Assembly: GCA_944332675.1 (NCBI GenBank)
Contig: CALVKJ010000002.1
Span: 18 to 64,017, forward strand
Direction: 5' to 3'
Source of the DNA: an uncultured Bacilli bacterium
GTDB lineage: Bacteria > Bacillota_I > Bacilli_A > RF39 > UBA660
Length of the DNA stretch: 64,000 nucleotides
Shown piece by piece: positions 18,475 to 44,029 of the stretch; the stretch's first letter is position 1, and every line of letters begins with the position of its first letter. The translations under genes and the position numbers were made by a program. Below the pieces are notes generated by a model. It saw only the letters and a list, made by a program, of their open reading frames with translations, was not told where the DNA came from and did no database searches.

Positions 18475-18485
18475 AAAGGAGTTTT

Positions 18486-20402: not shown

Positions 20403-21161
20403 ATGTCTAGATATAAATATGTATTATTTTCAATAATTACTTTTGGATTATTTACATTATCAGCAAATGCAGCTAGCTGTAGTTATGAACAAAGGGCTGA
20501 ATTAAATAGTGAAATATCCAATATTACTGCCAACTATGAAGTAATTGAAGTGCCACTTGAAGAAGGAGCAACTCCTCCGGACGCTTTATTAGAATCAGAA
20601 GAGGAAGAATATACATGGATGGTAGAAGCTCTTCAAATAAATATACTAAATTTAACAGAAAATGTTTATGTTGAAGTTACTAATAATTACGACAACCAAA
20701 CTACCGTATATAATTATTCTGATACAGATAATGGAAATATTGCTATAGAATGGAGAACTCTTGGAGAACTAGTAACTTATACTATAAGAGTTTACGCATC
20801 TAGCGCTACTGATTGTGCTGATACATTATTAAGAACCTTACGAGTATCATTGCCAAGGTATAATGACTATGCTACATATGCAGTTTGTGATCAGGTTCCA
20901 GATTATTATTTGTGTCAACGATACGTATTTTTTGATCAAGTAGATTTTAACGAGTTTTCGACCAAAGTTTTAGCGGAAATCGAAAGAGTTGAACAAGAAG
21001 AAGAACAAAACAATGAAGAAGATACCACTTGGTATGAAGAGGTTGGTAATTTTATAAGCGAACATAAAACACCGATAATAATTGGCGTGGTATCTATTTT
21101 AGTTATAGCGGGGGTTATAGTTGTAATAGTAGTAATAAGACGTAGGAGAAGTGAAATATGA
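20403..21161 (+). CDS. secreted protein with C-terminal TM anchor (first gene of filament operon), function unknown
   Basis: Signal peptide (..FTLSANA/AS), acidic segments, and a C-terminal TM plus RRRRSEI stop-transfer tail. ATGA overlap with the next gene. Confidence 0.6.
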   Translation: MSRYKYVLFSIITFGLFTLSANAASCSYEQRAELNSEISNITANYEVIEVPLEEGATPPDALLESEEEEYTWMVEALQINILNLTENVYVEVTNNYDNQTTVYNYSDTDNGNIAIEWRTLGELVTYTIRVYASSATDCADTLLRTLRVSLPRYNDYATYAVCDQVPDYYLCQRYVFFDQVDFNEFSTKVLAEIERVEQEEEQNNEEDTTWYEEVGNFISEHKTPIIIGVVSILVIAGVIVVIVVIRRRRSEI

Positions 21162-24100
21162 AAAAGTTTTTAAAAATTTTAGCAGTTTTTGTAGTATTTT
21201 TCTTTAGTATAAATTCAGCTGAGGCTTTTAGTACTGATACATCAATTGTGTATACTAAAACTAGAGCTGATACAATCAGAATTAACAGTTTAAGGCTTAC
21301 TAACGGTAGTAGTAGCAAAAGTTATTCTACTTACCTTTACAATATGGTGGGTAATGGTGAAACTTATATAACTTATTGTATGGACCCACATAAACCAGCA
21401 GCTACTTATTATACGTTGGACCGTATTTTAGGAGATGCTTCCTATTCTGGTGGAGTTAGAGCATTTGACTATGGGATGTTGGAAATACTTAAACATGCAT
21501 ATACGCAAATTAACAATGAATTTACTACTAGTGATGCAACACCAGAAACCACTCCTGATCCTTTTGTTACAACACTTACTGGTGAAAAACTTTACGCTGC
21601 AGCCAGAATAGCTATTGTATCTTTGAACTCAGCGGTATTCGGCTGGGCTGGTAGAGGTTTAAATGACCAAAGCATGAGAGCAACAGCATCTTCTTATTTA
21701 ACTCGTGGTACATATTGGGCACAATGGCGTGAAGATATTGCTGTTTTTACGGGAACTACTGGTACCACTCCAAGTGAAAGATATAAACAAATAATTAATA
21801 GAAATGAACAATACTATACTTGGTATATGAGTGATTGGGATTTTACTGGTTGGTCTTATGGCAATGATGCTTATGATGTAATTTATGCAGCCAAAGAACT
21901 TTTTGATATTGGTTTGGATGCTGCTGTAGATTTCGTTGAAAATGGCCGTGTTGAATCAAGCATAAGTGGTAGTGTTACTTCAACTGTTCAAGATGGTCAA
22001 AGAACCGAAGATGAAGTTCAAGAATACGTATATATTAATATGGATCTAGTAGACTTTGCGGAAGATGCATATGTCAATAACTTTAATTTCACTTGTAGTA
22101 ATTGCTCAAGTAGTGGTGTAACATACGATTACATGGAATATTACAATGCTGAAAATGAATGGGTAAGATTAACTTCTGATGTTGATATTTCTAAAGTATT
22201 AACACCAGATGAAGATGGCATAAGAAGTGGGACAGTAAGAATCAGAGTTCACTTTACTAAACAAGTATTAGATGAAGAAAATTGTAGCAATGCTTCATTT
22301 ACTGTAACTTACGATTATTATGATCCTAATAAACAATATATTGGAGCTTTATTAAAAAACAAAAATGGTGATTATCAAAGAATGCTTGTTATTGATGAAG
22401 TTTCTGGTGATGTTAATTCCGATGGCATTCCTGGATCTGTTGGTTGTGCTAATCCTGTTTGTGATACACAATTATCAGTTCCAATTTGTAGTGATGATGA
22501 AGACGAAGCAATATCAGAAATTTATGCACCAGAAAATATTAAAAAATGCGTTTTAGATAATCAAGACGATGCTGGAAATAATTATAATTTAGTTGAAGAT
22601 TCTGGTGGAGTTTCTGAAGATAATGCATATTGTCAAGTTTTCTGTAAAGAAGATTACTTTGATGTAATTCAAGAAGAAGGCGGAAATGTCCTTGGTGGTA
22701 TTAAATTGAATCCTGAAATAGAAGATGTTAACTGTGGTGGATATTTCCAATTAACAGCTCACGTAGAAGGTAAGAAAGATTGCTATACTAGTGGCGGAAC
22801 TGAAGATAAAGAAATAAATAGGGAACAATATATTGCCGATATAACAGAAGCTCAAATAACAATGATTAATGCATACAATGAATATTTAAGATGGCAAACT
22901 GCATATGATAGTGTTCCAGAAACAGATAGCAATAAATATCACTCTCTTGAAACAGACCCTTATACTTGTTGCCCTGAGCCACCTGCAACTGGAAGTTGTA
23001 GTTGTGGTTGTGGTATTGATGGATATTGTGTAGGATATAATATCAGCGGAGAAGTTACAGGTTTCTCTTATAGTGATAATGGAGATGGAACGTTAACAAT
23101 TAGTAGAAACCAAACTTTGTCATATAGTTATACAGATGATGGCGGAAGATCAGCAAGTGGCTGTGGTGGAAGTTGTAGTTCTGGATCAACTTCAACATTA
23201 AAAAGGAACCTAAAAGATGATTATTTAGATCCAGCTATAGATGCTTTAAATACTGCAATTAGTAAATATGAACAAATAATTGCTAGCTATAACTCTTGTA
23301 CTACAAATTGGACAAATGAATATCCTTTTGAACAAAAATTGAGTTTCTACTATAGCGAATATCAAGGAAATGAAGATTATAGTCCTTATTACGATTTAAT
23401 TTCTGCAACTGGCGATCCTGATTTATATTATCTTGATCCTGTTGATGAATCATTAGTTGAAGAATATGAAATTGAAATTTGTTTAGATGGTACAACATCA
23501 GAATATGAATGTGAAGGTAGACAATATAATTATGAAGAAATGGATGTTACATTAGGAACTTATAATTATTCTCAAGATTATTCTGAAGTATTCGAACATC
23601 AAGATTATATAAAGTGTAGTGAAAGCGGTTGCTCAATCGATCAAGATGCTTATGTTTCAAATGCAACATTCGTAAAAAAGACTGTTAAAAAATCACAAGA
23701 TTATATAACACCAACTGTGTTCTATCAAATTGAAGCGAATGGACGTATTACTGTAAATAGTGGTTATACTGGAAATGCTTTAACTTTAGATGCACTAATT
23801 AATGCTTTACCAATATCTACTCGTGCTACTGGTGGTGGAGTCTTCAAATTAATGCTTGAAGATTTAGGTGAATTCTATGACCCAAGTGATGCTGTAACTC
23901 AAGCGGATAACTTAGGTAGATTAATAGACTATGGTAGATCGGAAGTTGATGGAGTTAACCACGTTAGAGGAGATAACTACGATAAGAGTGTAGCAGTTGC
24001 TGTAGGAAGAGAAGGAATTGAAACATTTACTGGTGATTACACTTGCTACTACTACTCTGATTGTCGAACTGAAGACTGTCCAGATTGCGACTTTGTCTGT

Positions 24101-24727
24101 GAAGAAGGAGAATGTGAATGGGTATACTGTCCAGATTGTGAATTTGATTGTGTAAACTGTATTTTCAATTTAGATGAATTACAGATAAACTTTAAACCAA
24201 TATCTACTGTAGATGTCGAATCTGCTAATAGAGATTTAGGTTACAACTGGAATGTTAATACAACCCTTGAAGCTCTGGAATTATTGCGAGATAAAGCATC
24301 ACTTACTATTCAAGAAATAGAAACAGAAAATGAAACAATTTACAATAAGACTGGTGATGATTCAGAATTAGACTTTAGTATTAGATTAAATTCTGAAATT
24401 ATCAACTATTTAAAAGAATACAATGGATCTGTTGAAGACGAGGGTGGTTATGCAAATGACTCACTAACTTGCTATTCTGCAACAATTGATGGTAAGAATT
24501 TTGCAAATATCTTCTGTTATAGTGATGTATTAGATGATTTGTATGATCAATATGAAGATCAAATAACATTTGCACCAGGAAGAATTTCTAGAGGTCAAAG
24601 AAATGTAGATTCTGATGGTTCAAGTAATGCCAATGCAAATGGTTATTGGTCATTATGGTCTGGATGGACAGAATCTGAAAAAGTAAATGGTCAATACTCT
24701 GTTATTGGTGGACCATCATGGAAATAG
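21158..24727 (+). CDS. 1189-aa secreted Cys-rich protein (candidate filament-associated adhesin), function unknown
   Basis: Signal peptide MKKFLKILAVFVVFFFSINSAEA/FS; no LPXTG and no C-terminal TM. Cys clusters: CCPEPPATGSCSCGCGIDGYC and DCPDCDFVCEEGECEWVYCPDCEFDCVNC. Confidence 0.65.
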   Translation: MKKFLKILAVFVVFFFSINSAEAFSTDTSIVYTKTRADTIRINSLRLTNGSSSKSYSTYLYNMVGNGETYITYCMDPHKPAATYYTLDRILGDASYSGGVRAFDYGMLEILKHAYTQINNEFTTSDATPETTPDPFVTTLTGEKLYAAARIAIVSLNSAVFGWAGRGLNDQSMRATASSYLTRGTYWAQWREDIAVFTGTTGTTPSERYKQIINRNEQYYTWYMSDWDFTGWSYGNDAYDVIYAAKELFDIGLDAAVDFVENGRVESSISGSVTSTVQDGQRTEDEVQEYVYINMDLVDFAEDAYVNNFNFTCSNCSSSGVTYDYMEYYNAENEWVRLTSDVDISKVLTPDEDGIRSGTVRIRVHFTKQVLDEENCSNASFTVTYDYYDPNKQYIGALLKNKNGDYQRMLVIDEVSGDVNSDGIPGSVGCANPVCDTQLSVPICSDDEDEAISEIYAPENIKKCVLDNQDDAGNNYNLVEDSGGVSEDNAYCQVFCKEDYFDVIQEEGGNVLGGIKLNPEIEDVNCGGYFQLTAHVEGKKDCYTSGGTEDKEINREQYIADITEAQITMINAYNEYLRWQTAYDSVPETDSNKYHSLETDPYTCCPEPPATGSCSCGCGIDGYCVGYNISGEVTGFSYSDNGDGTLTISRNQTLSYSYTDDGGRSASGCGGSCSSGSTSTLKRNLKDDYLDPAIDALNTAISKYEQIIASYNSCTTNWTNEYPFEQKLSFYYSEYQGNEDYSPYYDLISATGDPDLYYLDPVDESLVEEYEIEICLDGTTSEYECEGRQYNYEEMDVTLGTYNYSQDYSEVFEHQDYIKCSESGCSIDQDAYVSNATFVKKTVKKSQDYITPTVFYQIEANGRITVNSGYTGNALTLDALINALPISTRATGGGVFKLMLEDLGEFYDPSDAVTQADNLGRLIDYGRSEVDGVNHVRGDNYDKSVAVAVGREGIETFTGDYTCYYYSDCRTEDCPDCDFVCEEGECEWVYCPDCEFDCVNCIFNLDELQINFKPISTVDVESANRDLGYNWNVNTTLEALELLRDKASLTIQEIETENETIYNKTGDDSELDFSIRLNSEIINYLKEYNGSVEDEGGYANDSLTCYSATIDGKNFANIFCYSDVLDDLYDQYEDQITFAPGRISRGQRNVDSDGSSNANANGYWSLWSGWTESEKVNGQYSVIGGPSWK

Positions 24728-24740: not shown

Positions 24741-25148
24741 ATGAAAAATGCTTTGTGGGGATACTGGTTAGTATTACTTGGAATATTCGTAGTTGTTATA
24801 ATGTTGCTTGTGCAAAATTTAACAACTTCGTCTACCCAAGATTACTATTTAATAAAAGAAATTACGGAAGCAGCTTTAATAGATGCAGTTGACTATTCTT
24901 ACTATCGTACTTTCGGTGAAATTAAAATAAATAAAGAAAAGTTCTATGAAAGTTTTATTCGAAGATTTTCGGAAAACGCTTCAGTTACTACCGACTATAC
25001 AATTAATTTTTACGGAGTTTATGAAGCACCGCCAAAAGCTAGTGTAGAAATTAAAAGTAAATCAAACACATTCAATGTTGTAGGAGATTCGGAATCCTTT
25101 GATATGACTGAAAGAATTGATGCTATTATTGAAGGAAATGCAATATAA
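24741..25148 (+). CDS. pilin-like/pseudopilin-like protein (short leader plus N-terminal hydrophobic helix)
   Basis: MKNALWG then YWLVLLGIFVVVIMLLV, followed by a ~100-aa soluble domain. Same architecture as ORF 32590. Confidence 0.45.
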   Translation: MKNALWGYWLVLLGIFVVVIMLLVQNLTTSSTQDYYLIKEITEAALIDAVDYSYYRTFGEIKINKEKFYESFIRRFSENASVTTDYTINFYGVYEAPPKASVEIKSKSNTFNVVGDSESFDMTERIDAIIEGNAI

Positions 25149-25169: not shown

Positions 25170-25943
25170 ATGGGAAATTTAATAAATACATTTAAAAGAT
25201 TTCTTACAAATAAAACGACAGTTACCATTTTAGGGATAGTAATAGGGATAGCAGTATTATTTTTCTTCTATATGTATCGTGTAAATAATGCTGTTAACCC
25301 TAGAGAAATCCCGGTTGCTACTAGAACAATCGCTGCAACTGAAGAAATTACGCGTGATGATATTAAAATGGTTAGCATCGGAAGTAGTTTTTTAAATGAT
25401 GCTGATGTATATACTAGTGCAGATTCTTTAGTTGGAAAATATGTAAATACTGGTACATCTATTCCAGCTGGAGGAATGTTTTATACTAGCCAAGTGGTTG
25501 AAAAAGAAGAATTGCCAAATTCAATATTTGATGAAATACCTGATGGCTATACAATTTATCAGTTAAGAGTAGATAATGAATCGACTTATGCTAATTCGAT
25601 TTATCCTGGTGATAGAATTGACTTATGGATGTCAACAACGCAAGATGGTTTGGTTTATTATGGTGAATTTATCCACGGAATTGAAGTTTTAGCAGTTCGT
25701 GATTCTAGCGGTGAAAATGTTTTTGATGTAACGAGTGGAAGAACACCAGCTTGGTTACTGTTTGCAGTTCCTACCGATATGTATCGTTATTTAAAAGTTG
25801 CTGAATTTTTATCAGGAGTAACTATAACACCGCTTGTTAGAAATACCAATTATAATTCTGATGTTGGTTCAACTGAAATTACCAATGAAGTATTATTACA
25901 AATGATCGAAAGCAGAATTATGGATATGGGTGGAAGTTACTAG
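25170..25943 (+). CDS. CpaB/RcpC-like Flp pilus assembly protein, copy 1
   Basis: N-terminal TM, then PREIPVATRTIAATEEITRDDI (SAF-like) and a C-terminal beta domain. Paralogue of the next ORF. Confidence 0.65.
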   Translation: MGNLINTFKRFLTNKTTVTILGIVIGIAVLFFFYMYRVNNAVNPREIPVATRTIAATEEITRDDIKMVSIGSSFLNDADVYTSADSLVGKYVNTGTSIPAGGMFYTSQVVEKEELPNSIFDEIPDGYTIYQLRVDNESTYANSIYPGDRIDLWMSTTQDGLVYYGEFIHGIEVLAVRDSSGENVFDVTSGRTPAWLLFAVPTDMYRYLKVAEFLSGVTITPLVRNTNYNSDVGSTEITNEVLLQMIESRIMDMGGSY

Positions 25944-25952
25944 GAGGATAAA

Positions 25953-26741
25953 ATGGGAAATATTTTAAAGAATATTAAAAATGCACTTTTAAATAGAAAT
26001 ACAGTAACTATATTAGCCGTTTTAGCGGGAGTAGTAGTTTTATGGTTTTTCTATAATATGACAGTAAATAATGCCATTAATCCTCAAAGAGTTCCTGTAG
26101 CAACAAGGAACATAACTGCTAAAGAAATGATAACTTCTGAAGATTTTGAGTACGTTGAAATTAATAGTGGATTTTTAGAAAGTGCCAATATTATTACTAA
26201 TGCTAGTCAACTTGTTGGTTACTATGTTAAAAATGAAACTTCGATTGTTGAAGGAGCAATGTTTTACCGCGAACAAGTTGTTGAAAGAAGTGAACTTAAA
26301 GAAAGAGAACAAGAAACTCTACCAGATGGTTACACGATATATTGGCTTCAAGTTGATAACACAAGTACATACGCTAATTCAATTTATCCTGGTGATAAAA
26401 TAGACTTATGGTTGAAAGCTGAAGTTGATGGTCAATTTATTTATGATGAATTTATCAATAGTATCGAAGTAGTTTCTATAAAAAATTCATCTGGAGCTAA
26501 TGTGTTTGATACTCAAACTTCTAGTGAACCAGCTTGGTTATCATTTGCAGTAACTTTCGAAATGGCTGAATACTTAGAGTTAATTGATAGAATAACTGAA
26601 AATAGAATGGAAGTATATCCAGTACCAAGAAATAAATTGTATACAACTGAAGGAGCTGAAGTATCTTATTCGAATGAACTATTATTACAAATGATTGATA
26701 GTTATGCCGGATTTACTCCAGGATCGACAACAACCGAATAA
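25953..26741 (+). CDS. CpaB/RcpC-like Flp pilus assembly protein, copy 2
   Basis: Same layout as copy 1. Shared blocks include DGYTIYWLQVDNTSTYANSIYPGDKIDLW. Confidence 0.65.
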   Translation: MGNILKNIKNALLNRNTVTILAVLAGVVVLWFFYNMTVNNAINPQRVPVATRNITAKEMITSEDFEYVEINSGFLESANIITNASQLVGYYVKNETSIVEGAMFYREQVVERSELKEREQETLPDGYTIYWLQVDNTSTYANSIYPGDKIDLWLKAEVDGQFIYDEFINSIEVVSIKNSSGANVFDTQTSSEPAWLSFAVTFEMAEYLELIDRITENRMEVYPVPRNKLYTTEGAEVSYSNELLLQMIDSYAGFTPGSTTTE

Positions 26742-26769
26742 AAAAGAATTAAATAAGAGGTGGCAAATC

Positions 26770-27876
26770 GTGAATGATGCTATATTTTCACAAATAGATT
26801 TTGGACCTTTAAAAGAGTTTTTAGAGGAAGACAACGTAACTGACGTATCATATTCAAATGGTGGTCAAGTTTGGCTAAAAACTCTTGATAAAGGTGTTTA
26901 TCGCGTAGATAGACCAGAAATAAATAATGCTTTGATGGAAAAGCTTGCTTTTCAATGCTCTAATGTAATGGGTAAAACATTTAATATGGCTCATCCTTTT
27001 TTGGATGCCGAATCAGCTGAGCTTCGTCTTAACTTTGTTCATGAATCAATTGCAACTAATGGTATAGCTTGTGTTATCCGTAAGACGCCTGCCAAAATCC
27101 GTCTTAACAAAGATAAACTTATTAATGAACAATATGTAACTGAAGATTTACATGACTTTTTAATGACTTGCGTTGCAGGGCACTGCAACATAATTGTAAG
27201 TGGAGAAACTGGTTCTGGTAAAACTGAACTTGTTAAATACTTAGCCAGTCATACTAAAGAAAATGAAAAAATTATAACTATTGAAGATACCTTAGAACTA
27301 CACTTAGATAAAATATTCCCACATAGAGATATTGTTGCTATGAAAACAAATAACATTGCCTCATATTCTGATGTTTTGGTAACCTGTATGCGGCAAAACC
27401 CACGTTGGATTTTACTATCCGAAGTTCGTTCTGCTGAAGCGGTTACGGCGGTTCGTAACTCTATATCATCAGGACATAACATCATATCTACAATTCACTC
27501 GGATAGAGCTTTAAATATTCCAATGCGTATGTACAGTTTGCTAGAAAGTAGCCAAGATATTGAACAATTCCTAAATTCAATTCACCGATACGTTCAAATT
27601 GGTATTCACGTAAAAGGTTATATGAGTAAAGAATTAGGCAGATTTCAAAGAGAAATTATTGAAGTTGTTGAGTTCTATGTCGATGAAAACAACGAAGCCA
27701 AAGCCAATATAATATTTAAAAAGAGTCTAGATGGTAAATATAGTTTTAATAATCCAACTAAATATTTAATCGATTACCTTGGAGTTCAAGGGGTAGAGAT
27801 GAAACAAGATTATTTTGAAAAGTCTAAAGGCTCAGTAACAGATATACAACCAGAAAATGCCATTGAAAGTCTATAA
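26770..27876 (+). CDS. TadA/CpaF/VirB11-class type IV filament secretion ATPase
   Basis: Walker A GETGSGKTE, Asp box ITIEDTLEL, Walker B RQNPRWILLSEVR, His box GHNIISTIH. The in-frame GTG at 26770 has a GAGGTGG RBS; the track start 26695 overlaps the previous gene. Confidence 0.85.
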   Translation: MNDAIFSQIDFGPLKEFLEEDNVTDVSYSNGGQVWLKTLDKGVYRVDRPEINNALMEKLAFQCSNVMGKTFNMAHPFLDAESAELRLNFVHESIATNGIACVIRKTPAKIRLNKDKLINEQYVTEDLHDFLMTCVAGHCNIIVSGETGSGKTELVKYLASHTKENEKIITIEDTLELHLDKIFPHRDIVAMKTNNIASYSDVLVTCMRQNPRWILLSEVRSAEAVTAVRNSISSGHNIISTIHSDRALNIPMRMYSLLESSQDIEQFLNSIHRYVQIGIHVKGYMSKELGRFQREIIEVVEFYVDENNEAKANIIFKKSLDGKYSFNNPTKYLIDYLGVQGVEMKQDYFEKSKGSVTDIQPENAIESL

Positions 27877-27891: not shown

Positions 27892-28797
27892 ATGCAAACA
27901 CTTACAGAACTGGTAATTTTACTTATAATAGCTGTAATTGTCCTAATATTTCGGAGAAATCCTGGAGAAAATGTTTATAAATTTGTAGTAGGCAATGTTA
28001 CGCGAATTTATGATAAATATGCTCCGTATTCCTTCAAAATGGTTCGGGAAAAAGCTATTGAATTAGGGCAAGAGTATAATGCACGTCAATATTTAACCCA
28101 AGTTATAATATTTGGGGGTGTCGCAGCCTTAATAGGGTATTTTTACTTCTACAGTATTATAATAGCTGTTATATATGCCATTATTGCTATTGTGTTTATT
28201 CCTTATCTTGCCTACTTACGATGTCAAAGAGTATATAGTGAATATATATTTGAACAAATTCAAACTTATACAACTAACGTTATCATGGAATTTAATACAA
28301 CTCAAAGCTTTGTTAAATCTCTTGAAGGAGTTAGAGATTCTGGAATATTAGAAAATCCGGTATTAGATGATGTTAAAAAGATGATCGATATGTCTTATCA
28401 AAATGGAACAATTGATGAATCTTTACAATATTTCAATGATAAATATCCTTATTATATGGTAAAGAATATGCATCAATTATTCTTGCAAATTACCAAAGAA
28501 GGTGCAAGAGATTCTGGACAAGCTCTAGAAAATATGTCATTAGATATCGATGCCCTAGTTGAAGGTGTATACCGCGATCAAATGGATAGAAAAAACTTCC
28601 ACGGAAGGTTCATTAGGTTTGGTCTAATTCTTTATTTATTAGTGGTTGTTTTAAGATATTTGCTTGGTGAAGAAAATTATATAGCTCTATTAGATATGTG
28701 GTATGTTCAACTTATACTCCATGCCGTAGTAATAATTAATGCTTTTTTCCTAGTTTCGGGAGAAAAATATTATAATGAAGATGTGGGGGTAGAATAA
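27892..28797 (+). CDS. TadB-like platform protein (T2SS-F-type domain)
   Basis: N-terminal TM, central TM pair, a cytoplasmic helical domain and C-terminal TMs. Sits directly after the ATPase gene. Confidence 0.6.
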   Translation: MQTLTELVILLIIAVIVLIFRRNPGENVYKFVVGNVTRIYDKYAPYSFKMVREKAIELGQEYNARQYLTQVIIFGGVAALIGYFYFYSIIIAVIYAIIAIVFIPYLAYLRCQRVYSEYIFEQIQTYTTNVIMEFNTTQSFVKSLEGVRDSGILENPVLDDVKKMIDMSYQNGTIDESLQYFNDKYPYYMVKNMHQLFLQITKEGARDSGQALENMSLDIDALVEGVYRDQMDRKNFHGRFIRFGLILYLLVVVLRYLLGEENYIALLDMWYVQLILHAVVIINAFFLVSGEKYYNEDVGVE

Positions 28798-29585
28798 TGC
28801 AAATAGAAATTATTATTATCGCTGTTATTGTTTTTGTTATTATGACTATCGGCGGACAAATAAATATCAATCAAATGATTAGTGATAATCAAATGCTTTT
28901 CTTAAAGCTTAAAGAAAGTGATTGGGATTTTTTTGTCAGAGCTAGATATGGTAACAGTGTAAACCCTGATGTATTATTTAATAAAAGAATCAAGAACGCT
29001 CTTATTGTAATGGTTTTAGCATTTTTCTTTATGATTCAAGATTTAAATGCTGTTAAAGTTTTAATCATATTTGTTCTCGGTATATTTATATTTAAAATGC
29101 CTTACAATGACATAAAGAAATTTTATAATCAACATATGCATCAAATTGATGCTATGTTACCCCATTATTTAAAGAGCTTGGAAATATTAATACAACACTA
29201 CACTGTACCGGTGGCTATTGGTAAGTCAATGGCAGATGCTCCGGAAATATTTAAAGAAGGATTGCAGGAAATGATCGATGCCATAAATTCTGGTGATGAT
29301 TCCATAGAGCCTTATATGGCTTTTGCTCGTAAATATCCTGTAAGAGATTCAATGCGAATGATGCGGCTTTTATATCGGCTTAGTTTAGGTCGTCAAGAAA
29401 GAAAGCAAGAACAAATTTTAACATTTTCAAGATCGATTTCTAGTTTACAACAAAAAGCCCGGGAAACAAGATATAAAAATCGTTTGGAAAAGATGGAAAG
29501 TAAAACTATGAGTATGCTTATTACAACTGGGTTAGGAGTAATGATTTTACTAATTTTAGCCGTAATGCAACTTATGGGTGCTTAA
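28797..29585 (+). CDS. TadC-like platform protein (T2SS-F-type domain)
   Basis: Same topology as the TadB-like ORF. Contains a helical domain (LPHYLKSLEILIQHYTVPVAIGKSMADAPEIFKEGLQEMIDAINSGDD). Start overlaps the previous stop. Confidence 0.6.
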   Translation: MQIEIIIIAVIVFVIMTIGGQININQMISDNQMLFLKLKESDWDFFVRARYGNSVNPDVLFNKRIKNALIVMVLAFFFMIQDLNAVKVLIIFVLGIFIFKMPYNDIKKFYNQHMHQIDAMLPHYLKSLEILIQHYTVPVAIGKSMADAPEIFKEGLQEMIDAINSGDDSIEPYMAFARKYPVRDSMRMMRLLYRLSLGRQERKQEQILTFSRSISSLQQKARETRYKNRLEKMESKTMSMLITTGLGVMILLILAVMQLMGA

Positions 29586-29671: not shown

Positions 29672-29947
29672 ATGAAAGAAGCGACTGGAGAATTAAACAT
29701 GACTGTTGTTACTGTTGTTGCTATAGCAGCTGTTGCAGCATTCTTTTATGCATTTGTTTGGCCAGCAGTTAAAAACCAAATAAATCGTAATACCTACTGT
29801 GCTGCTGCAGTTTCTTGTGGTGAACCAGATGCAGATGGAAATCGTACTTGTCAATATGTTGATGAAGATGGTGATTTACAAGATGTACTTTGTCCTGCAG
29901 ATACTACTACAGGCGGAACTACAGGCGGAACTACAGGTGGTAATTAA
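29672..29947 (+). CDS. pilin-like protein 1 (91 aa, Cys-rich, TTGG-repeat tail)
   Basis: MKEATGELNM leader-like N-terminus, a 22-residue hydrophobic helix, 4 Cys, and a C-terminal TTTGGTTGGTTGGN. Confidence 0.6.
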   Translation: MKEATGELNMTVVTVVAIAAVAAFFYAFVWPAVKNQINRNTYCAAAVSCGEPDADGNRTCQYVDEDGDLQDVLCPADTTTGGTTGGTTGGN

Positions 29948-29976
29948 AGATTAAATTATTAAGTGAGGTAATTTGA

Positions 29977-30222
29977 ATGAAAGAGGCAACCGGGGAACTA
30001 AATATGGCAGTTGTTGTAGCAATATCAATTGCAATCTTGGCGGCCTTTTTTTTCAGTTATTTATGGCCGATTATTAACAATAATTTCTATAGAACATCAC
30101 AATGTGATAAAGCAGCCTGCGACTGCAGTAATATAGAAGTTGTCAATGATGTTGAATATTGCACTCCTTGCTATATAAATGGTGAAGAGATTCCAGGTAT
30201 GAAATGTATTTTTAAAGGGTAG
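29977..30222 (+). CDS. pilin-like protein 2 (81 aa, Cys-rich)
   Basis: First 10 residues identical to pilin 1 although encoded with six synonymous differences. Hydrophobic helix and 7 Cys in the C-terminal half. Confidence 0.6.
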   Translation: MKEATGELNMAVVVAISIAILAAFFFSYLWPIINNNFYRTSQCDKAACDCSNIEVVNDVEYCTPCYINGEEIPGMKCIFKG

Positions 30223-30229: not shown

Positions 30230-31804
30230 ATGAAAGAATCAGTAAGTGTTACTACAATTTTTCAAATTGTTATACTATTTATTCTATTGTTCACCGCAAT
30301 AATGTGTTTAACAATCAATAATTCTAATGCTTTTGGAGTTAGAGATGAAATTATCAACATTATTGAAATGAACAATGGAAACTATTTGAGTGATGATAAT
30401 TCTGGTTATTTGTCTGAAGAAATTGTTGATGCTATATCAGCTGCTGCCTATAGAACTACAGGTATTTGTGATGCTGAATATACTGGCTTTGAAAGAAATG
30501 GTCAACCAGTTGGATCTGGAGATCTGGCATCAGTATGCATTAGAGAAGTTAGCGTAACTGATGGAATAGATTCTTATTTAGATGAATTATTGGGAGATAC
30601 AGTAGATGCTGAGTTTGTTGAAGGTAAATATTATCAAATAGTTTTGTTTTACCAATTAGATTTACCAGTAATGCGTCAAGTTTACAATTTCCAAACAAAA
30701 GGTGAAACTAAAATCATCTATGAAGAAACTCGTAGTGTAAATACTAGTGGTTCAACAAGTAGTAACAATGGTACTTTGTCAGATATTTTTGATAATAATT
30801 CAAATAATAATACATCTACAGAAACAGGAAATAATAATTCGTCAGGAAATAACAATGAAACGAATAATGGAAACAATATTATGGGGGAGCAATTAGCTTG
30901 TCGTGAAGGTTTAGTTGAATCAGATTTAATAAGTGGTATTCAAGGTGTAGCAATGGCTGTTGTACCTATATATCCCAGTTTAAATGATACAAATAATACC
31001 AGATCGACAAGATTAGATGGAACGAAGTTTTCAATTTTAGGTAATGATGGTACAGCCAACGGTGGAGGCCGTTGGGCCATAATGTATGATGGCGAATGTG
31101 GCTGGGTTGATTCAACTTATATGGCTATTGATGCTACAGATTATTTACCATCTAATGTGAGATTTAATATCACTAATGCAAGTTCTAGTGCTTATTATGC
31201 TTGGGATGGCACGAGTGATGTATGGATTCCCAATTTAACTGGCAAAAGACTATATGATAGTTCCCAATATAACAATTCTTTTGTACCATTAACATTTTCA
31301 TTTGCTCAGAGTTTACGTAATATTGCTCAAAATAATTCAAACAGACAATTTCTTATAAATGATGCTTACAGACCATATTCTGTAACAGTATTAGCTAGAA
31401 ACACTTTAAGCAGTTTAATTAGTAGTAATTCCAATGTTTTAAATGTCGGAATGTCTGGCTGGGGAACTGGCTGGTTTTTAGCTCAAGGGGTTTCTGCTCA
31501 TAATACTGGCTGTGCTGTTGATATTACTTTTGCTGATCTTTCCACAGAACAAATAAGAAATATGCCAAGTGCTATGCACGATTTAAGCAAAAGAGCAGCT
31601 ATTTATACTTATTCTGGTAGTGGTACATACCGTACGGAGTTTACTAACTCTCAAGCATCTACTTTACATAGTATTATGACTGCTGGTGGCTTAGATGACT
31701 TAGCTAGTGAATGGTGGCATTATCAAAGCGATTCTTGCTATAATACAATCCGTAGTCATTCTAGTACAAATGGTGGGCAAAACATTAGTTTTTACGACTT
31801 GTAA
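30230..31804 (+). CDS. fusion protein: TadE-like pseudopilin module + Asn/Ser-rich linker + SH3b-like domain + M15 (VanX/VanY-type LAS) peptidase
   Basis: The N-terminal ~165 aa is paralogous to ORF 32590 (YYQIVLFYQLDLPVMRQVYNFQTKGET vs YYQIIVFYRFNLPVIGDVMTFQVEGTT). The C-terminus has INDAYRPYSV, SAHNTGCAVD and EWWHY zinc-peptidase motifs. Confidence 0.7.
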   Translation: MKESVSVTTIFQIVILFILLFTAIMCLTINNSNAFGVRDEIINIIEMNNGNYLSDDNSGYLSEEIVDAISAAAYRTTGICDAEYTGFERNGQPVGSGDLASVCIREVSVTDGIDSYLDELLGDTVDAEFVEGKYYQIVLFYQLDLPVMRQVYNFQTKGETKIIYEETRSVNTSGSTSSNNGTLSDIFDNNSNNNTSTETGNNNSSGNNNETNNGNNIMGEQLACREGLVESDLISGIQGVAMAVVPIYPSLNDTNNTRSTRLDGTKFSILGNDGTANGGGRWAIMYDGECGWVDSTYMAIDATDYLPSNVRFNITNASSSAYYAWDGTSDVWIPNLTGKRLYDSSQYNNSFVPLTFSFAQSLRNIAQNNSNRQFLINDAYRPYSVTVLARNTLSSLISSNSNVLNVGMSGWGTGWFLAQGVSAHNTGCAVDITFADLSTEQIRNMPSAMHDLSKRAAIYTYSGSGTYRTEFTNSQASTLHSIMTAGGLDDLASEWWHYQSDSCYNTIRSHSSTNGGQNISFYDL

Positions 31805-31813: not shown

Positions 31814-32557
31814 GTGATACACTTGAAAAGAATTGTTTTATTGGGAGCTATCATTTTTCTTCTGAGTGGTTGTACAGTTGATTATAATCTAACTATCGAA
31901 GGAAATTCTTTTAAAGAAGATATTGCAGTTTATACTACTAACGTATCCTCTTTAGATGAAATTCAGCCATCTTATTATAATAGGACTTATAGAACTTTAT
32001 TTGATACTATTAGACAAATGCCAATAGGAATTTATTATGATGCTGATGAACCTTTATATAATCGAACTTTAATCGATGAGGAAAATCGTTATGGTGCTAA
32101 TTTTACAAATGATTTTACTTTTGCTGATTTAGCTCGTTCCAACGCAATAAACAAATGTTACAATCCATCAGATATTATATTAACTGCAGATAGTGATATA
32201 TATACTCTAAGAACTGTATCAAGCTGTCAATTATTCGAATATGAAGAAATTTTTAAAGAATTAAATATTAAAATAACTGTTAATAACTATGTTTTAAGTA
32301 ATAATGCCGATAGTGTTGATGGTAATACTTATACTTGGACTATTAACAGAGATAATTATAATAATAAAACGATAAATATTTCTTATGATACTACAAGGGA
32401 ACCAGTAATAACGAGTACTACTGAGGAAACTAATAGTAATTCGATAATTTCTTGGATTATAGACAATATTCCTATAGTAGCTGGAGGATTATTAGTTATC
32501 ATCACGATAATATGTGTTATAATTATAGATAGTAGAAATAAAAAGAAAATTAATTAG
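31814..32557 (+). CDS. lipoprotein with additional C-terminal TM anchor, function unknown
   Basis: Lipobox IFLLSG/C near the N-terminus and a C-terminal TM (IVAGGLLVIITIICVIII) plus a basic tail. The start is ambiguous between GTG 31814 and TTG 31823. Confidence 0.55.
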   Translation: MIHLKRIVLLGAIIFLLSGCTVDYNLTIEGNSFKEDIAVYTTNVSSLDEIQPSYYNRTYRTLFDTIRQMPIGIYYDADEPLYNRTLIDEENRYGANFTNDFTFADLARSNAINKCYNPSDIILTADSDIYTLRTVSSCQLFEYEEIFKELNIKITVNNYVLSNNADSVDGNTYTWTINRDNYNNKTINISYDTTREPVITSTTEETNSNSIISWIIDNIPIVAGGLLVIITIICVIIIDSRNKKKIN

Positions 32558-32589: not shown

Positions 32590-33036
32590 ATGCGGGAAGT
32601 AACTGGATCTACGTGGGTATTTCAATTGATGATAATTTTTATTCTTATCTTCGCCTGCTTTTTATGTCTAGTTATAAACTACTCTAAAGCTTATCGTGTT
32701 AAGAATGAAGTATTATCGATAATAGAAAAATATGAAGGTATATCTTCGACCTCAGCGGGAATAATTAATAACTATTTAAGAGGAGAATCATATGTAACAA
32801 CAGGATCTTGTCCTGATGGTTATTATGGTATCAAACTTGATAATGATGGTTATGAAGTTGCTCGTAGTGGTCAAAAATATAGTTATTGCTTTAGAGATGA
32901 ATATACAAACGATGGAATGATTTACTATCAAATAATTGTATTTTATCGTTTTAATCTCCCAGTAATCGGAGATGTTATGACATTCCAAGTTGAAGGAACT
33001 ACGGAATCATTCCAAGGAAATGTGGATCGTTATTAG
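32590..33036 (+). CDS. TadE-like pseudopilin
   Basis: MREVTGSTWVFQLMIIFILIFACFLCL N-terminus. Paralogous to the N-terminal module of ORF 30230. Confidence 0.5.
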   Translation: MREVTGSTWVFQLMIIFILIFACFLCLVINYSKAYRVKNEVLSIIEKYEGISSTSAGIINNYLRGESYVTTGSCPDGYYGIKLDNDGYEVARSGQKYSYCFRDEYTNDGMIYYQIIVFYRFNLPVIGDVMTFQVEGTTESFQGNVDRY

Positions 33037-33051: not shown

Positions 33052-34044
33052 ATGAACGTAATTATTTCTAACAAATATCAAGCATTGCTGGCTAATTTAG
33101 ATATTGATGTAATAAAAAGTATTAATGGTGAATTTACAGTAGATGAGTTAATTGCTCAATTTTCCAATTTTTATTACAATAAAATGATAATAGATATTAC
33201 TGCTATCAAAGGTTATCAAGATATTAATGTTATTCAACAACTTTCTGTAAACTTTGATATGTCTAAAGTTATTCTTCTTTTAGATGATTCAGAAACCGTT
33301 AATTCTCCAATGTATTTATCGCAATTAGTATCAATGGGTATTTATAATTTTGCTACCAATGTAAATGTTATTAAGTTCTTAATAGATAACCCTAACACTT
33401 ATAAAGACGTAGCTAGTTATCATAACATCAATGGCTTTAAAAAACCGGCGTTAAATGAAAATGTTGTAGATAATACCAAAGGAAAAATAGGACAAAAGAT
33501 TATTGGTTTTAAAAATGTAACAGATCATGCTGGAGCAACAACTTTAGTTTATTTATTAAAACTTCATTTAGAAAAAAATTATAAGGTAAAAGCAGTAGAA
33601 GTCGATGGTAATGACTTTATATTCTTTAATGATGATTCTCTAGAAAGTGTTTCTAGTGTTACATTTAATGATTTTTTAGCCCAAAATATTAATTGCGACG
33701 TTATCTTAGTAGATTTAAATAATAGTTCTGTTGAAAACTATTGCAACGATATTATTTATTTAATTGAACCAGGACGTATCCAATTAAATAAATTAATAAG
33801 AAAAGATAATGAAATATTTGAAAAACTTAAAAACAAAAAGATTGTTTTAAATAGAAGTGTTTTAAATGATAAAGATGTTGATGATTTTGAACGTGAAAGT
33901 GGTAGTAAAGTATTTTATAACTTACCATACCTTGATGATAAATTAGATAATCAACCAATTATTAACAACTTTTTATCTACTTTAGGTTTTAGTAGAGTAG
34001 AAGAAAATAAGGGCGGTTCAGGATTATTTAGTATATTTAAATAA
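33052..34044 (+). CDS. TadZ/CpaE-like protein (receiver-like N-domain plus ParA/MinD-like domain with degenerate Walker A)
   Basis: N-terminal alpha/beta receiver-like segment. The C-terminal segment IGFKNVTDHAGATTLVYLL..VILVDLN occupies the position of the deviant Walker A/B of CpaE-type ATPases but lacks the GKT lysine. Confidence 0.45.
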   Translation: MNVIISNKYQALLANLDIDVIKSINGEFTVDELIAQFSNFYYNKMIIDITAIKGYQDINVIQQLSVNFDMSKVILLLDDSETVNSPMYLSQLVSMGIYNFATNVNVIKFLIDNPNTYKDVASYHNINGFKKPALNENVVDNTKGKIGQKIIGFKNVTDHAGATTLVYLLKLHLEKNYKVKAVEVDGNDFIFFNDDSLESVSSVTFNDFLAQNINCDVILVDLNNSSVENYCNDIIYLIEPGRIQLNKLIRKDNEIFEKLKNKKIVLNRSVLNDKDVDDFERESGSKVFYNLPYLDDKLDNQPIINNFLSTLGFSRVEENKGGSGLFSIFK

Positions 34045-34067
34045 TCAATTGAAGTGAGGTGCGTAAG

Positions 34068-34424
34068 ATGAGTTTTTGTTATAAGACTGCAGTTGTATGG
34101 CAGGTAATTGGTTATGTTTTTTTCATATTGAAAATAGTTATTCCAATGATTTTAATAATCTTAGGAATAATCGATTTTGGTAAAGCGGTTTTATCGAGTG
34201 ATGATAAATCGATAAAAGATGCCGCAATGACTCTTGCCAAAAGATTAATTGCAGGTGTCATAATATTCTTCATTCCAACTGTTATAAATGTCGTATTTAG
34301 TTATATTTCTGGTTTTAGTGAAGATATGCAAGCTGATGCAATGAATTGTATTAATTGTTTAACATCACCGAATGGCTCTTGTGATACAAGTTATGAAGGC
34401 GAAGTTTTTCCAACAGGAAATTGA
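34068..34424 (+). CDS. small 2-TM membrane protein with Cys-rich C-terminal tail, paralogue A
   Basis: Two hydrophobic helices separated by DFGKAVLSSDDKSIKDAA; tail NCINCLTSPNGSCD. The ATG at 34068 has a GAGGTG RBS. Confidence 0.55.
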   Translation: MSFCYKTAVVWQVIGYVFFILKIVIPMILIILGIIDFGKAVLSSDDKSIKDAAMTLAKRLIAGVIIFFIPTVINVVFSYISGFSEDMQADAMNCINCLTSPNGSCDTSYEGEVFPTGN

Positions 34425-34444
34425 CATTTATTTCAAGCAAAATA

Positions 34445-34473
34445 TTGACTTTATTAAGTATATAAGGTAAAAT
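34445..34473 (+). promoter_or_regulatory. candidate promoter for paralogue B
   Basis: TTGACT-17 nt-TAAAAT upstream of an AGGGAGGAG RBS. Confidence 0.4.
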
Positions 34474-34501
34474 GAATGTATATAGGGAGGAGTGCTATAA
34501 T

Positions 34502-34861
34502 ATGGGAAATGTTGATAGTTTTTGTGCACAAACATCAGATATATGGCGTACAATCGGATATTTTTTATTAGTATTTAAAATTGTAATTCCTATTATCTTA
34601 ATAATACTAGGAATGGTTGATTTAGGAAAGGCTGTAATATCAAGTGATGATAAAGCTATTTCTAAAGCTGCAAAGTCATTATTAATGCGTGTAATTGCAG
34701 CTGTAGCAATATTCTTTGTACCAACAATAGTATCATTTGTTATTCAATTAGTTGGTGGTACTGAAGGCGATTATGATGTATGTGCAAAATGTATTTCAAG
34801 TCCAGGTGGCGAAACTTGTACAGATGCATATAACGAATTAAAAGAACTTACTGAAGACTAA
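34502..34861 (+). CDS. small 2-TM membrane protein with Cys-rich C-terminal tail, paralogue B
   Basis: Collinear with paralogue A (LIILGMVDLGKAVISSDDKAISKAA; tail CAKCISSPGGETCTD). The ATG at 34502 has an AGGGAGGAG RBS. Confidence 0.55.
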   Translation: MGNVDSFCAQTSDIWRTIGYFLLVFKIVIPIILIILGMVDLGKAVISSDDKAISKAAKSLLMRVIAAVAIFFVPTIVSFVIQLVGGTEGDYDVCAKCISSPGGETCTDAYNELKELTED

Positions 34862-35032: not shown

Positions 35033-36541
35033 TTATTTATCTTCGTAGATTCCTGTATATTCATATCCATCAAGAGTCTTTTGAGTACTCCATCTATATT
35101 CTGGAGATCTATGCATCCAAGTAGTTTCCTTTTTAGGATTACTAATGCTATATCCATCATATCGATCTTGATTATCTGCTGCATCTCTTACACAATCATC
35201 GTTATATGCAAATGATACATCAAATTTTAGTGGTACAAAATATACATCATAACCTAAATTACTAGCATAATATGGTGTAACGCCATTATGATTTTTATAA
35301 TTTATTGTAACAGTAACTCTATAAACACCACCAGATAAATATACACCACTTACATCAAAAGTAAAGTTATTGCTTTTTAATGATGAGTTTTTATAAGATG
35401 TTACATTACTAATTGCTACATTATATCTATCATTATTTCCTGTCATATATAGGTTTCCACGATTATTTAGATAAGCTCTATAATCAGTATAACCACTAGT
35501 TGAGAAATAAGATTTACTTGAATTTACTACTCCAATAGTAGCATCATTTATATCATCTGGATCTAAATCTAAGAATTGAATTTCATATTCATAGGTACTA
35601 TTTTTCTTTGTACTGTCAGTAACATATCCTGTTGTATAATAAGTTTTTTCAGTATCTTTACAATAATCATAAGTTGTAGTCGTTATCTTTTTATTTTCGT
35701 CATCAGGATCACTTGAATATCCTGTTTTCCAATCAGACCATTTAACAAATTTATACCATCTTGTAGTTTCTTCTGTTGGCTTGTTGTTATCATCATTATT
35801 ATCATTGTCATTATTATTGTTGTTATCATTATCTGGATTACAACTTGTATAACAACATCCTGTAGAACAAGATATTTTAATATTTACTGTAGTTTTAACA
35901 GTGGTAGTAACTTTAGAACTTGTTGAAGAACTTCCCCCAGTAGTAGTTGTACTTGATCCACTATTAGTATTACTATTATTGTTATTATTATTGTTATTAT
36001 TTGTATTACTACTTCCTGAATTATTATCATCATTAGTATCAGTTGGTGTATCATCAACTACAACATCTGTATTAGTTGTATTGTCGCAAGTTCCATTTGT
36101 ACAAGTAGTTTCTTCAATAGTAGTAACAATAAAGTCTGATTTATCACCACAATCCAAACTAACTTTTAAAGCATAATTGCCATCAGCTGTCTTTGTTGTT
36201 TGAACATAACTTGAATTGATATCACAAATATCACCATCTTCAGTAAAGTCGATCAGTAACTTTTGATTTAACATTTGTGATAGTGTCAATTTTTCAGTAC
36301 CACCGACATTTTCTGGTAACTTTGAAGGTGTAAAATATTCAAATGCTGCGTCCTTCATCGCTGTTATGTTGGTAATATATTCGGTATTACCCATTGCTAG
36401 GTTATTATTTGAACTACTGTTATTGCCAGTAAATCTTGTAACAATTAAGCAAACTACAAAAACTACAACTGCCAAGATTACTAACTTAATAGCTAGTCCT
36501 GCCCAATTAAAACTTAATTTTCTGTTTCCTTCTTCGTACAT
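35033..36541 (-). CDS. N-terminally anchored surface protein with poly-Asn/Asp/Thr tracts, function unknown
   Basis: TM anchor (LAIKLVILAVVVFVVCLIV), homopolymeric N runs (NNNNNNNNNSN, NNNNNDNDNNDDNN) and a Tyr/Thr-rich beta-like C-terminal domain. Confidence 0.6.
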   Translation of the reverse strand: MYEEGNRKLSFNWAGLAIKLVILAVVVFVVCLIVTRFTGNNSSSNNNLAMGNTEYITNITAMKDAAFEYFTPSKLPENVGGTEKLTLSQMLNQKLLIDFTEDGDICDINSSYVQTTKTADGNYALKVSLDCGDKSDFIVTTIEETTCTNGTCDNTTNTDVVVDDTPTDTNDDNNSGSSNTNNNNNNNNNSNTNSGSSTTTTGGSSSTSSKVTTTVKTTVNIKISCSTGCCYTSCNPDNDNNNNNDNDNNDDNNKPTEETTRWYKFVKWSDWKTGYSSDPDDENKKITTTTYDYCKDTEKTYYTTGYVTDSTKKNSTYEYEIQFLDLDPDDINDATIGVVNSSKSYFSTSGYTDYRAYLNNRGNLYMTGNNDRYNVAISNVTSYKNSSLKSNNFTFDVSGVYLSGGVYRVTVTINYKNHNGVTPYYASNLGYDVYFVPLKFDVSFAYNDDCVRDAADNQDRYDGYSISNPKKETTWMHRSPEYRWSTQKTLDGYEYTGIYEDK

Positions 36542-43991: not shown

Positions 43992-44029
43992 AATGTATCA
44001 CCTAATATAATTGTTACAAACAAAACAAT

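Follow-up and report, generated by a model that had tools for sequence, protein, structure and literature searches.

A predicted peptidoglycan hydrolase carried by a pilin-like protein of an atypical Tad-like operon in uncultured gut Bacilli

The crossing of the monoderm wall by type IV filaments was described as an open question in a 2019 review (PMC6916266), and a gene of an uncultured Bacilli bacterium, which encodes a pilin-like protein ending in a cell wall peptidase, bears on it. The gene lies in a stretch of 64,000 nucleotides from contig CALVKJ010000002.1, the whole of which is referred to here as the window. It occupies exactly positions 30230..31804 (+), starts with ATG and encodes a protein of 524 amino acids with a pilin-like N-terminal module (N-module), a disordered linker, an SH3b domain and an M15 peptidase domain. 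A first-pass annotation had read this protein as a TadE-like pseudopilin that tethers a cell wall hydrolase to a filament. Based on the analysis below, the protein serves, with a probability of roughly 55%, to remodel peptidoglycan as a dedicated subunit of an atypical machine of the CpaF/CpaB (Tad/type-IV-filament-like) type in uncultured gut Bacilli. The demonstrated part of this account comprises the domain order, the active site, the flexible tether, the operon membership and the recurrence of such fusions. The protein is 99% identical to a cluster of database sequences (P0001, 30 sequences from 9 contigs). The proteins concerned are already in public databases, where they stand without a name or as 'DUF5411 family protein'.

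Domain structure of the fused protein

The C-terminal domain (residues ~310-520; 31157..31789 (+)) was assigned to Peptidase M15 of the VanX/DdpX type, which has the LAS fold. Pfam PF01427 (Peptidase_M15) matched residues 335-500 with 50.4 bits against a gathering score of 27. When PDB sequences were searched with phmmer, VanX (1r44) was found at E 9.7e-6, with SAHNTGCAVD aligned on SSHSRGSAID and EWWHY aligned on EWWHY. In this alignment Arg381 (31370-31372 (+)) fell on the YRP motif of VanX, His424 (31499-31501 (+)) on H116, Asp431 (31520-31522 (+)) on D123 and Glu494-Trp-Trp-His497 (31709-31720 (+)) on E181/H184. We take the aligned residues to be the zinc ligands, the catalytic Glu and the substrate-binding Arg, which in VanX (Arg71) contacts the substrate carboxylate. 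The Arg, His-Asp and Glu-x-x-His residues were invariant in 22 fused homologues, and the active site is intact. The M15/LAS signatures pointed out in the first-pass annotation were thus borne out by a family score above threshold, by the VanX alignment and by the invariance of the motifs.

Like VanX and DdpX (MEROPS M15D, PF01427, 1r44), the protein has the motifs containing VanX His116, Asp123, Glu181 and His184 together with the YRP Arg. Unlike them, it is predicted to be extracytoplasmic and tethered, with an SH3b domain ahead of the peptidase. An assignment as a VanX or DdpX orthologue was rejected, since the NCBIfam equivalog scores were far under their cut-offs (41.9 vs 176 for DdpX, PRK10178; 36.9 vs 320 for dipept_VanX). 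A Foldseek search with the full-length model recovered SH3 and, weakly, the phage Peptidase M15B, and it did not recover VanX; the M15 assignment therefore rests on sequence.

The SH3b domain (SH3_3-like, residues ~222-305; 30893..31144 (+)) contains the invariant residues Cys224 and Cys290. Searched alone, this segment gave no match to Pfam SH3_3 (PF08239), and the only match was to SH3_2 at E 0.088. One loop was seen by eye to hold extra residues (NDGTANGGGR) compared with the homologues that do match SH3_3. PF08239 was matched individually by 25 of the 30 aligned homologous segments, with a best value of 6.7e-14. A profile of the family matched the Clostridium perfringens SH3_3 domains 2kyb (3.3e-8), 2kt8 and 2krs in the PDB and also 2kq8, a chain deposited as 'Cell wall hydrolase'. 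When the beta-barrel of the model was submitted to Foldseek, SH3 came out on top (probability 0.98, E 0.019) and the phiSM101 endolysin 4krt was found with a probability of 0.82. The SH3b domain that had been suspected earlier is therefore real, even though the segment lacks a PF08239 match of its own.

Between the N-module and the SH3b domain lies a flexible tether rich in Asn, Ser, Thr and Gly (residues ~166-221; 30725..30892 (+)), as judged from composition and from the predicted local distance difference test score (pLDDT). The AlphaFold2 (AF2) model of the full-length protein had a mean pLDDT of 87.9, and values below 50 were found for residues 173-214, indicating disorder. An Asn/Ser/Thr-rich linker had been claimed for this position, and both the composition of residues ~166-215 and the predicted disorder agreed with it. 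Among homologues the length and composition of the linker are free to vary, since it is rich in Asn, Ser and Thr in this protein and rich in Glu in a group of fused proteins that we call clade B.

The N-module (residues 1-165; 30230..30724 (+)) consists of the leader MKESVS, a predicted helix with a hydrophobic first part and an alpha/beta head. Two AF2 runs, one on the full-length protein and one on the module alone (pLDDT 86.7), agreed on one continuous helix at residues 2-47, and DSSP assigned helices H2-47 and H63-71 and four strands to both models. A BLASTP comparison with the stand-alone ORF at 32590..33036 (+), which encodes 148 amino acids with the leader MREVTG, gave a single alignment of residues 1-161 with residues 1-139 (33% identity, E 1e-23) that takes in the YYQIVLFYQLDLPV / YYQIIVFYRFNLPV block. 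Judged from this alignment, the similarity lies far beyond chance and spans the whole module, beyond the hydrophobic helix. The paralogy of residues 1 to ~165 with ORF 32590 proposed from the sequence was thereby confirmed. The further claim that the two share the same leader did not hold, since position 6 is Gly in ORF 32590 and Ser in the fused protein. In the following, the fused protein and its orthologues are called paralogue 1 and ORF 32590 is called paralogue 2.

Cys80 and Cys103 were invariant in the alignment of the N-module family. The extracytoplasmic parts of the protein thus contain two invariant Cys pairs, C80/C103 in the N-module and C224/C290 flanking the SH3b domain, in a host presumed to be a strict anaerobe. 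These pairs could be disulfides or metal sites.

Recurrence of the fusion in related operons

The gene starts 7 nt past the end of the second of two small pilin candidate genes, and no terminator was found between them in a scan for consensus matches. It belongs to a run of genes on the same strand from ~20403 to 34861. A promoter-like site with 11/12 matches (29613-29641) lies just 5' of the two small pilin candidate genes, and a terminator-like hairpin (34872-34892) lies at the end of the run, both being consensus matches only. An AAGGAGG motif was found upstream of the small pilin candidate genes.

One genome per species was scanned, which gave 43 loci with the N-module, and the state of paralogue 1 in these loci was recorded in a tblastn census. 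The loci came from uncultured gut Bacilli, some of them labelled 'Tenericutes', Clostridium sp. CAG:609 or Candidatus Onthocola, and the sample sources included Hadza people, chicken, 'Lapin' (rabbit, judging by the sample name) and 'BRZ'. Paralogue 1 was fused to SH3b-M15 in 6 of the 43 loci (L009-L012, L037, L047) and to a CHAP domain at the same junction in one (L013); the CHAP fusion was also present as P0018 in L002-L004. In L050 the gene was truncated by the contig end. In about 34 of the 43 loci paralogue 1 was a stand-alone protein of 164-180 aa with paralogue 2 directly downstream and with no M15 or CHAP domain within 10 kb.

Two loci (L007 and L008) had a stand-alone paralogue 1 of 164-165 aa in exactly this place, 5' of uvrA-lgt-trxB, which shows the fusion to be a derived and optional trait. 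Since about 34 of the 43 species lack it, it is not essential to the machine. When fused and unfused orthologues from this site were compared, their carrier modules were 57-80% identical, and the carrier therefore keeps its original role.

The hydrolase cassette was also found on a second subunit. L052 has an operon of this type, also at the uvrA site, in which both N-module paralogues are free and the SH3b-M15 cassette is attached to the DUF5411 protein. The same arrangement was present in two operons of the Clostridia type (Ruminococcus type), L001 and L053. DUF5411 combined with M15 was detected in ~25 protein clusters at 90% identity, and among the closest 120 of 665 matches to DUF5411, 119 were stand-alone proteins of ~135 aa. 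A homology between the N-module and DUF5411 was rejected (hhalign probability 0.1%), so that two unrelated carriers are involved. P0010 of L005 has an N-module 79% identical to that of the protein described here, whereas its cassette shares 70% identity with one carried by DUF5411 (P0030) and only 53% with ours. This mismatch indicates that the cassette moves between carriers. The fused proteins of clade B contain a third cassette lineage, with 31-35% identity.

The occurrence of two unrelated hydrolase folds on two unrelated carriers found only in this operon, with repeated exchange, would be hard to explain otherwise than by selection for a wall hydrolase attached to this machine. The findings amount to a wall-hydrolase domain encoded inside the operon, attached to an operon-specific protein and conserved in position, as is expected of a machine-dedicated hydrolase. 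The presence of the cassette on two subunits and the CHAP swap have much strengthened the link between hydrolase and machine. This is the part of the 'filament-tethered' reading in the first-pass annotation that stood. The tethering to a filament did not stand in the same way, since a protein without the Gly of the putative cleavage site gives it no better support than it gives to membrane anchoring at the machine.

Hydrolases dedicated to envelope-spanning machines are known. FlgJ, encoded within a flagellar operon, has a rod-capping domain fused to a muramidase, and PrgK and TraG have an N-terminal membrane anchor followed by hydrolase domains including CHAP; TcpG and VirB1 belong to the same class. 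Like the members of the FlgJ/VirB1/PrgK class, the protein described here places a wall hydrolase in the operon of an envelope-spanning machine and attaches it to a structural or anchoring part. It differs from them in three respects. A pilin-like module from a CpaF/CpaB-type system serves as the carrier in place of a rod cap or a type IV secretion system (T4SS) component, a VanX-type M15 peptidase with SH3b stands in place of a muramidase or lytic transglycosylase, and within the lineage the fusion is not obligatory.

Wall hydrolases that serve a particular machine are a known kind, as are modular pilins; what is new is their combination in a Tad-like system. No fusion of a hydrolase with a pilin-like subunit in a Tad-like system was found in our literature searches, and a structural paper of 2025 stated that peptidoglycan hydrolases have not been reported with Tad pili (PMC12307814). 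We tentatively propose that here, for the first time, a peptidoglycan hydrolase is seen as an integral part of a subunit of a Tad/type-IV-filament-like machine and that the cassette is mobile between subunits. It would be a natural Rosetta-stone case, in which the joining of a wall hydrolase to subunits of a single Tad-like machine has occurred several times in evolution. The fusions point to subunits located where the wall must open, and they provide a testable clue to the passage of a pilus through the thick Gram-positive wall. In a 2025 preprint, the free hydrolase LytF raised the extracellular level of ComGC, the major Com pilin, in S. sanguinis, which its authors read as promotion of pilus extrusion across the wall (PMC12424861).

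Proposed role, the pilin question and other readings

The protein is predicted to be inserted into the membrane through the hydrophobic N-terminal helix of its small pilin-like module. If it is a remodelling subunit of the machine, the N-module would dock the enzyme in the assembly complex, which could be at the base or within a minor-pilin complex that primes and caps the filament. A disordered tether of ~50 residues would let SH3b-M15 reach the wall directly above the machine, where SH3b would bind the wall and M15 would trim or cleave stem peptides, giving a local opening of the thick wall for the filament. The logic would be that of FlgJ, VirB1 and the hydrolases of Gram-positive conjugation systems, and the fusion would be a derived and optional improvement, with most relatives keeping the unfused module. 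Should the carrier subunits make up a complex that primes the filament or sits at its tip, the filament would bring along its own drill for the monoderm wall as the pilus counterpart of FlgJ. A membrane location at the base is slightly favoured over a tip complex, given the missing Gly. The replacement of M15 by CHAP argues for cleavage within the wall, and the fusions suggest that the wall, beyond free D-Ala-D-Ala, may be a substrate of some M15 domains of the VanX type.

The pilin identity of the carrier and the substrate of the enzyme are the weak points of this account, and a number of results weigh against it. First, ~34 of the 43 related species have no fusion, so that the machine evidently works without it. 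Second, the characterised PF01427 enzymes (VanX, DdpX) are, to our knowledge, D-Ala-D-Ala dipeptidases and not wall hydrolases. Third, the leader is atypical for a class III signal peptide, in which a short leader with Gly (or Ala) as its last residue precedes ~20 hydrophobic residues. The leader of the N-module family reads M[KR]E[AS][IY]G(G), and its sixth residue is Gly in 43 of 53 stand-alone members. The fused protein starts with MKESVS-VTTIFQ and has the hydrophobic stretch, but it carries Ser at position 6, as do all 29 hydrolase-fused members. An acidic residue was looked for in the first 20 residues after its leader and none was found, including the Glu at +5. Fourth, the fused protein gave no match to TadE (PF07811), Tad (PF13400) or N_methyl, and hhalign gave the N-module a probability of 2.9% against canonical TadE and 0.1% against DUF5411. 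Fifth, a Foldseek search of the PDB with the model of the N-module returned no pilin and no match reaching E 0.001, with noise such as TRPML1 on top. Finally, no A24 prepilin peptidase was detected in the window (crude screen, Pfam) or in the gene tables of L001, L005, L007, L008 and L052, and the two polytopic membrane proteins of the operon, the putative platform proteins, had no Pfam, NCBIfam or PDB (phmmer) match.

Minor pilins of known systems sometimes lack Glu5 as well. A change from Gly to Ser as a result of the fusion was rejected, because the unfused paralogue 1 orthologues of L007 and L008 also have Ser; the leader Ser is a trait of paralogue 1 in this clade. The replacement of the family Gly at the leader end suggests that the protein may stay unprocessed and anchored in the membrane.

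The label 'TadE-like pseudopilin' was thus upheld only in part. No Pfam or NCBIfam family reached its threshold over the N-module of either paralogue. When Pfam was run on 69 members of the family, 10 gave weak sub-threshold matches to PF13400 ('Tad'), the best at E 0.028. The family had 170 database matches, most of which were stand-alone proteins (145-190 aa) entered as 'hypothetical protein [Bacilli bacterium]', and the 120 of these that were listed had no precomputed Pfam domain except in two Flg_new fusions. TadE was therefore rejected as a family label, on these results and the hhalign value. Type IV pilins have a lollipop fold, in which an N-terminal helix of ~50 residues packs on a beta-sheet head, and the Foldseek search gave no information on this fold. 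The predicted helix/sheet topology, the leader motif of the family and the gene position remain in favour and partly support a pilin character. Given the leader Ser and the absence of a family or fold match, we call the N-module pilin-like and not TadE.

With respect to position, monoderm Tad loci have the order flp-tadE-tadF, in which small pilins are followed by two TadE/TadF positions. Paralogues 1 and 2 form a tandem pair after two small pilin genes, and by analogy this pair would sit where TadE and TadF occur in such operons. In their wider families the small pilin candidates, the N-module proteins and the DUF5411 proteins have in common a short leader whose last residue is Gly or Ala.

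Among other readings, we consider it rather unlikely that the protein is a true minor pilin that displays SH3b-M15 on the filament, turned outward at the walls of other bacteria and not at the wall of its own cell, with neighbour adhesion, competition or the release of DNA or nutrients as possible purposes. The combination of carrier, flexible linker and functional module follows the design of the modular pilin PilB of S. sanguinis, for which 264 architectures were counted, peptidase modules among them (PMC8179133). The only peptidase modules mentioned in the main text of that paper are S74 and M26, and six identifiers for M15, CHAP and SH3 domains were not found in the available part of its supplementary files. 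As in the modular pilins PilB and PilC, a small N-terminal module is followed by a linker and a variable grafted module, which is M15, CHAP or Flg_new in our protein and its relatives. Indeed, fusions of the same N-module to the surface repeat Flg_new (P0309, P0316 and in L006) look like display. The fusion is dispensable for the machine, as expected of an accessory effector, and the hosts are uncultured gut Bacilli with small genomes that live in dense communities. In Myxococcus, contact-dependent killing needs a Tad-like apparatus and involves local degradation of the prey wall (PMC8460266).

However, unlike PilB and PilC, the protein lacks the IPR012902/N-methyl signature, the Glu5 and the cleavage-site Gly, and it matched no solved pilin structure. 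The expected Gly is absent from it and from all 29 hydrolase-fused members, whereas it is retained in the Flg_new fusions and in P0122, which is expanded internally. Furthermore, no immunity genes or toxin-like neighbours were seen in the operon. An enzyme at the tip would in any case first have to cross the wall of its producer, and display and wall opening do not exclude each other.

It is improbable that the protein is an ordinary membrane-anchored autolysin or carboxypeptidase serving general wall turnover and growth, with the N-module as a mere signal-anchor and an operon location that is incidental or due to co-regulation. SH3b-M15 cassettes are indeed widespread behind plain signal peptides and other anchors without a pilin-like carrier (P0048, P0051, P0064, P0075), the N-module is not proven to be a pilin, and enzymes of the VanX type act on D-Ala-D-Ala. 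Chance co-location, however, does not predict that the cassette was captured repeatedly by two unrelated proteins found only in this operon, with a CHAP swap at one of them. The 57-80% identity of the carrier in fused and unfused orthologues and the start of the gene 7 nt after the second small pilin gene, with no terminator in between, also speak against it.

The least probable reading, in which M15 would remove the terminal D-Ala from stem peptides near the machine as a signal or regulator, leaving existing cross-links uncut and either lowering local cross-linking during new wall synthesis or marking the site, is in line with the D-Ala-D-Ala dipeptidases as the closest characterised relatives and with the invariance in the fused family of the Arg aligned to VanX YRP (presumably the carboxylate-binding residue, as VanX Arg71), but CHAP, which replaces M15 in one lineage, is an amidase/endopeptidase fold and not a carboxypeptidase, so that the shared selected function is more likely the cleavage of bonds within the wall.

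The operon and its chromosomal surroundings

The first two genes of the conserved operon (20403..24727 (+)) were assigned by synteny and encode a 252-aa protein and a 1189-aa Cys-rich protein that is a possible adhesin. The N-terminus of the latter resembles a secretion signal by eye. Neither protein matched a Pfam or NCBIfam family, and their gene order was conserved in L001, L007-L009 and L052. They are followed by the DUF5411 protein (135 aa; 24741..25148 (+); PF17424, 191.9 bits), the second kind of pilin-like subunit, with the leader MKNALWG-YWLV; the family leader is M-x4-W-[G/A]-YW.

Next come two CpaB/RcpC-like proteins of 257 and 262 aa (25170..26741 (+), with starts at 25170 and 25953). 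Both matched Pfam SAF at or near the gathering score, and they matched RcpC and NCBIfam TIGR03177 (35.8 and 34.6 bits vs 71) below threshold. The secretion ATPase (26695..27876 (+)) belongs to the CpaF/TadA/VirB11 group, with 100 bits for PF00437 (T2SSE); its best PDB relative was CpaF (8rkd, 6.7e-20), and its NCBIfam scores were all under the cut-offs. With the TTG start listed for it, the ATPase ORF has an overlap of 47 nt with the preceding gene. Alignments with homologues begin only at about residue 20-26, and the genes called in relatives encode 362-372 aa; the true start is probably ~20 codons downstream of the listed TTG.

The two polytopic membrane proteins (301 and 262 aa; 27892..29585 (+), with starts at 27892 and 28797) take the TadB/TadC position and were 65-95% identical across loci. 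The two small pilin candidates (91 and 81 aa; 29672..30222 (+)) have an MKEATG-ELNM start, a hydrophobic helix and a Cys-rich tail, with 4 and 6 Cys, respectively. They matched no Pfam or NCBIfam family, and their position was conserved in related loci. Downstream of paralogue 2, the distal conserved genes (33052..34861 (+), by synteny) encode a 330-aa protein, for which PDB (phmmer), Pfam and NCBIfam gave no assignment, and two small membrane proteins.

Like Tad (type IVc) pili, the operon encodes an ATPase closest to CpaF, two CpaB-like proteins, two polytopic membrane proteins after the ATPase, and small pilins followed by two paralogous pilin-like proteins. Unlike Tad loci, it gave no Pfam or NCBIfam match to the Flp, TadE, T2SSF or A24 peptidase families for any component, its NCBIfam scores stayed under the cut-offs, and it contains extra conserved genes for a ~1200-aa protein, DUF5411 and two T4SS_pilin-like proteins. 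The genome of L006 carries distal genes of the atypical system together with a separate canonical Tad locus (Flp, TadE, CbiA-type TadZ, T2SSE, T2SSF). The atypical system is therefore a distinct relative of Tad and not Tad itself.

A machine-learning study by Miller et al. (2022) flagged a 'predicted secretion-related operon' in Roseburia, Ruminococcus and Eubacterium, with a CpaF-like ATPase, a PilC/GspF-type membrane protein, DUF5411 and a large internalin/invasion-like protein; M15 or a wall hydrolase was not mentioned (PMC9523054). It was the only paper mentioning DUF5411 found in our literature search. The operon described here is of the same type, with PilC/GspF as a shared component that we infer to correspond to the 301-aa and 262-aa ORFs, and L001 and L053 belong to the kind described in that study. 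It differs from that kind as a Bacilli variant with extra distal genes and with the cassette on a different subunit. The hydrolase fusions open, for the first time, a way to the function of this operon, which occurs very commonly in gut metagenomes of humans and animals and has so far been flagged by machine learning alone (PMC9523054).

The core machine proteins of the Bacilli loci were unusually similar to those of the two loci in which the gene order is shorter, L001 (with the label Ruminococcus sp.) and L053 (a JGI metagenome contig without a label). Identities were 80% for the ATPase (L001), 68-70% for the 301-aa protein and 65% for the 262-aa protein (L053), and only 27% for the large ~1200-aa protein. 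The conservation of the core suggests either lateral transfer of the operon between classes or a very strong constraint.

A predicted lipoprotein of 247 aa (31814..32557 (+); lipobox LLSGC, C-terminal hydrophobic anchor with a KKK tail) is encoded between paralogues 1 and 2. It was absent from that position in the closest loci (L005, L009, L002), weak homologues with 31-33% identity were found several kb upstream in L041, L044 and L048, and the gene looks like a lineage-specific insertion into the operon. The two small distal membrane proteins (34059..34424 and 34472..34861 (+)) are paralogous and matched PF18895 (T4SS_pilin, VirB2-like) below threshold (16.4 and 22.9 bits vs 26.6). This pair (108-139 aa) is kept at the operon end in L002, L005, L007, L008 and L052, so that one operon mixes Tad-like and T4SS-like small subunits. 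In L006 (9475..11767 and 14454..19304), a Bacilli metagenome-assembled genome (MAG), paralogue 2 is fused to a Flg_new (PF09479) repeat, the canonical Tad locus with its two T2SSF genes is ~4 kb away, and the genes beside them do not include the ATPase part of the atypical system.

The window has a G+C content of ~30%, and the operon is flanked on both sides by housekeeping genes, including uvrA, lgt, gltX, cysS, ldh, uvrB and a DD-carboxypeptidase (Peptidase_S11), indicating that the locus is chromosomal and that the host makes peptidoglycan. A wall-less host, as the 'Tenericutes' labels of some MAGs might imply, was rejected for the window, which encodes both this DD-carboxypeptidase and Lgt. 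An origin from a mobile element or prophage was likewise rejected, since the site next to uvrA-lgt-trxB is conserved in the chromosomes of many species, no PHROGs match was obtained, and the window genes scanned gave no match to a relaxase or VirB4 family. An Rfam scan of the window found nothing.

A 502-aa protein (35033..36541 (-)) has, by eye, an N-terminal membrane helix and a long low-complexity stretch of Asn, Ser, Thr and Asp, and no family match was found for it, its C-terminal part included; a gene for 509-512 aa occupies the same place, in the interval from the operon to uvrA, in L005, L007 and L008. A 910-aa protein (43980..46712 (+)) contains a fibronectin type III domain, with no further family match, and is preceded by an unassigned 566-aa protein (41788..43488). 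At 10627..12699 (+) a protein with collagen triple-helix repeats is encoded (PF01391, 103 bits), which accounts for a local G+C peak of 0.40 vs ~0.30. The next gene encodes a glycosyltransferase-2 (GT2) protein with TPR repeats, and the Ruminococcus locus L001 likewise has such a GT2-TPR gene upstream of its operon.

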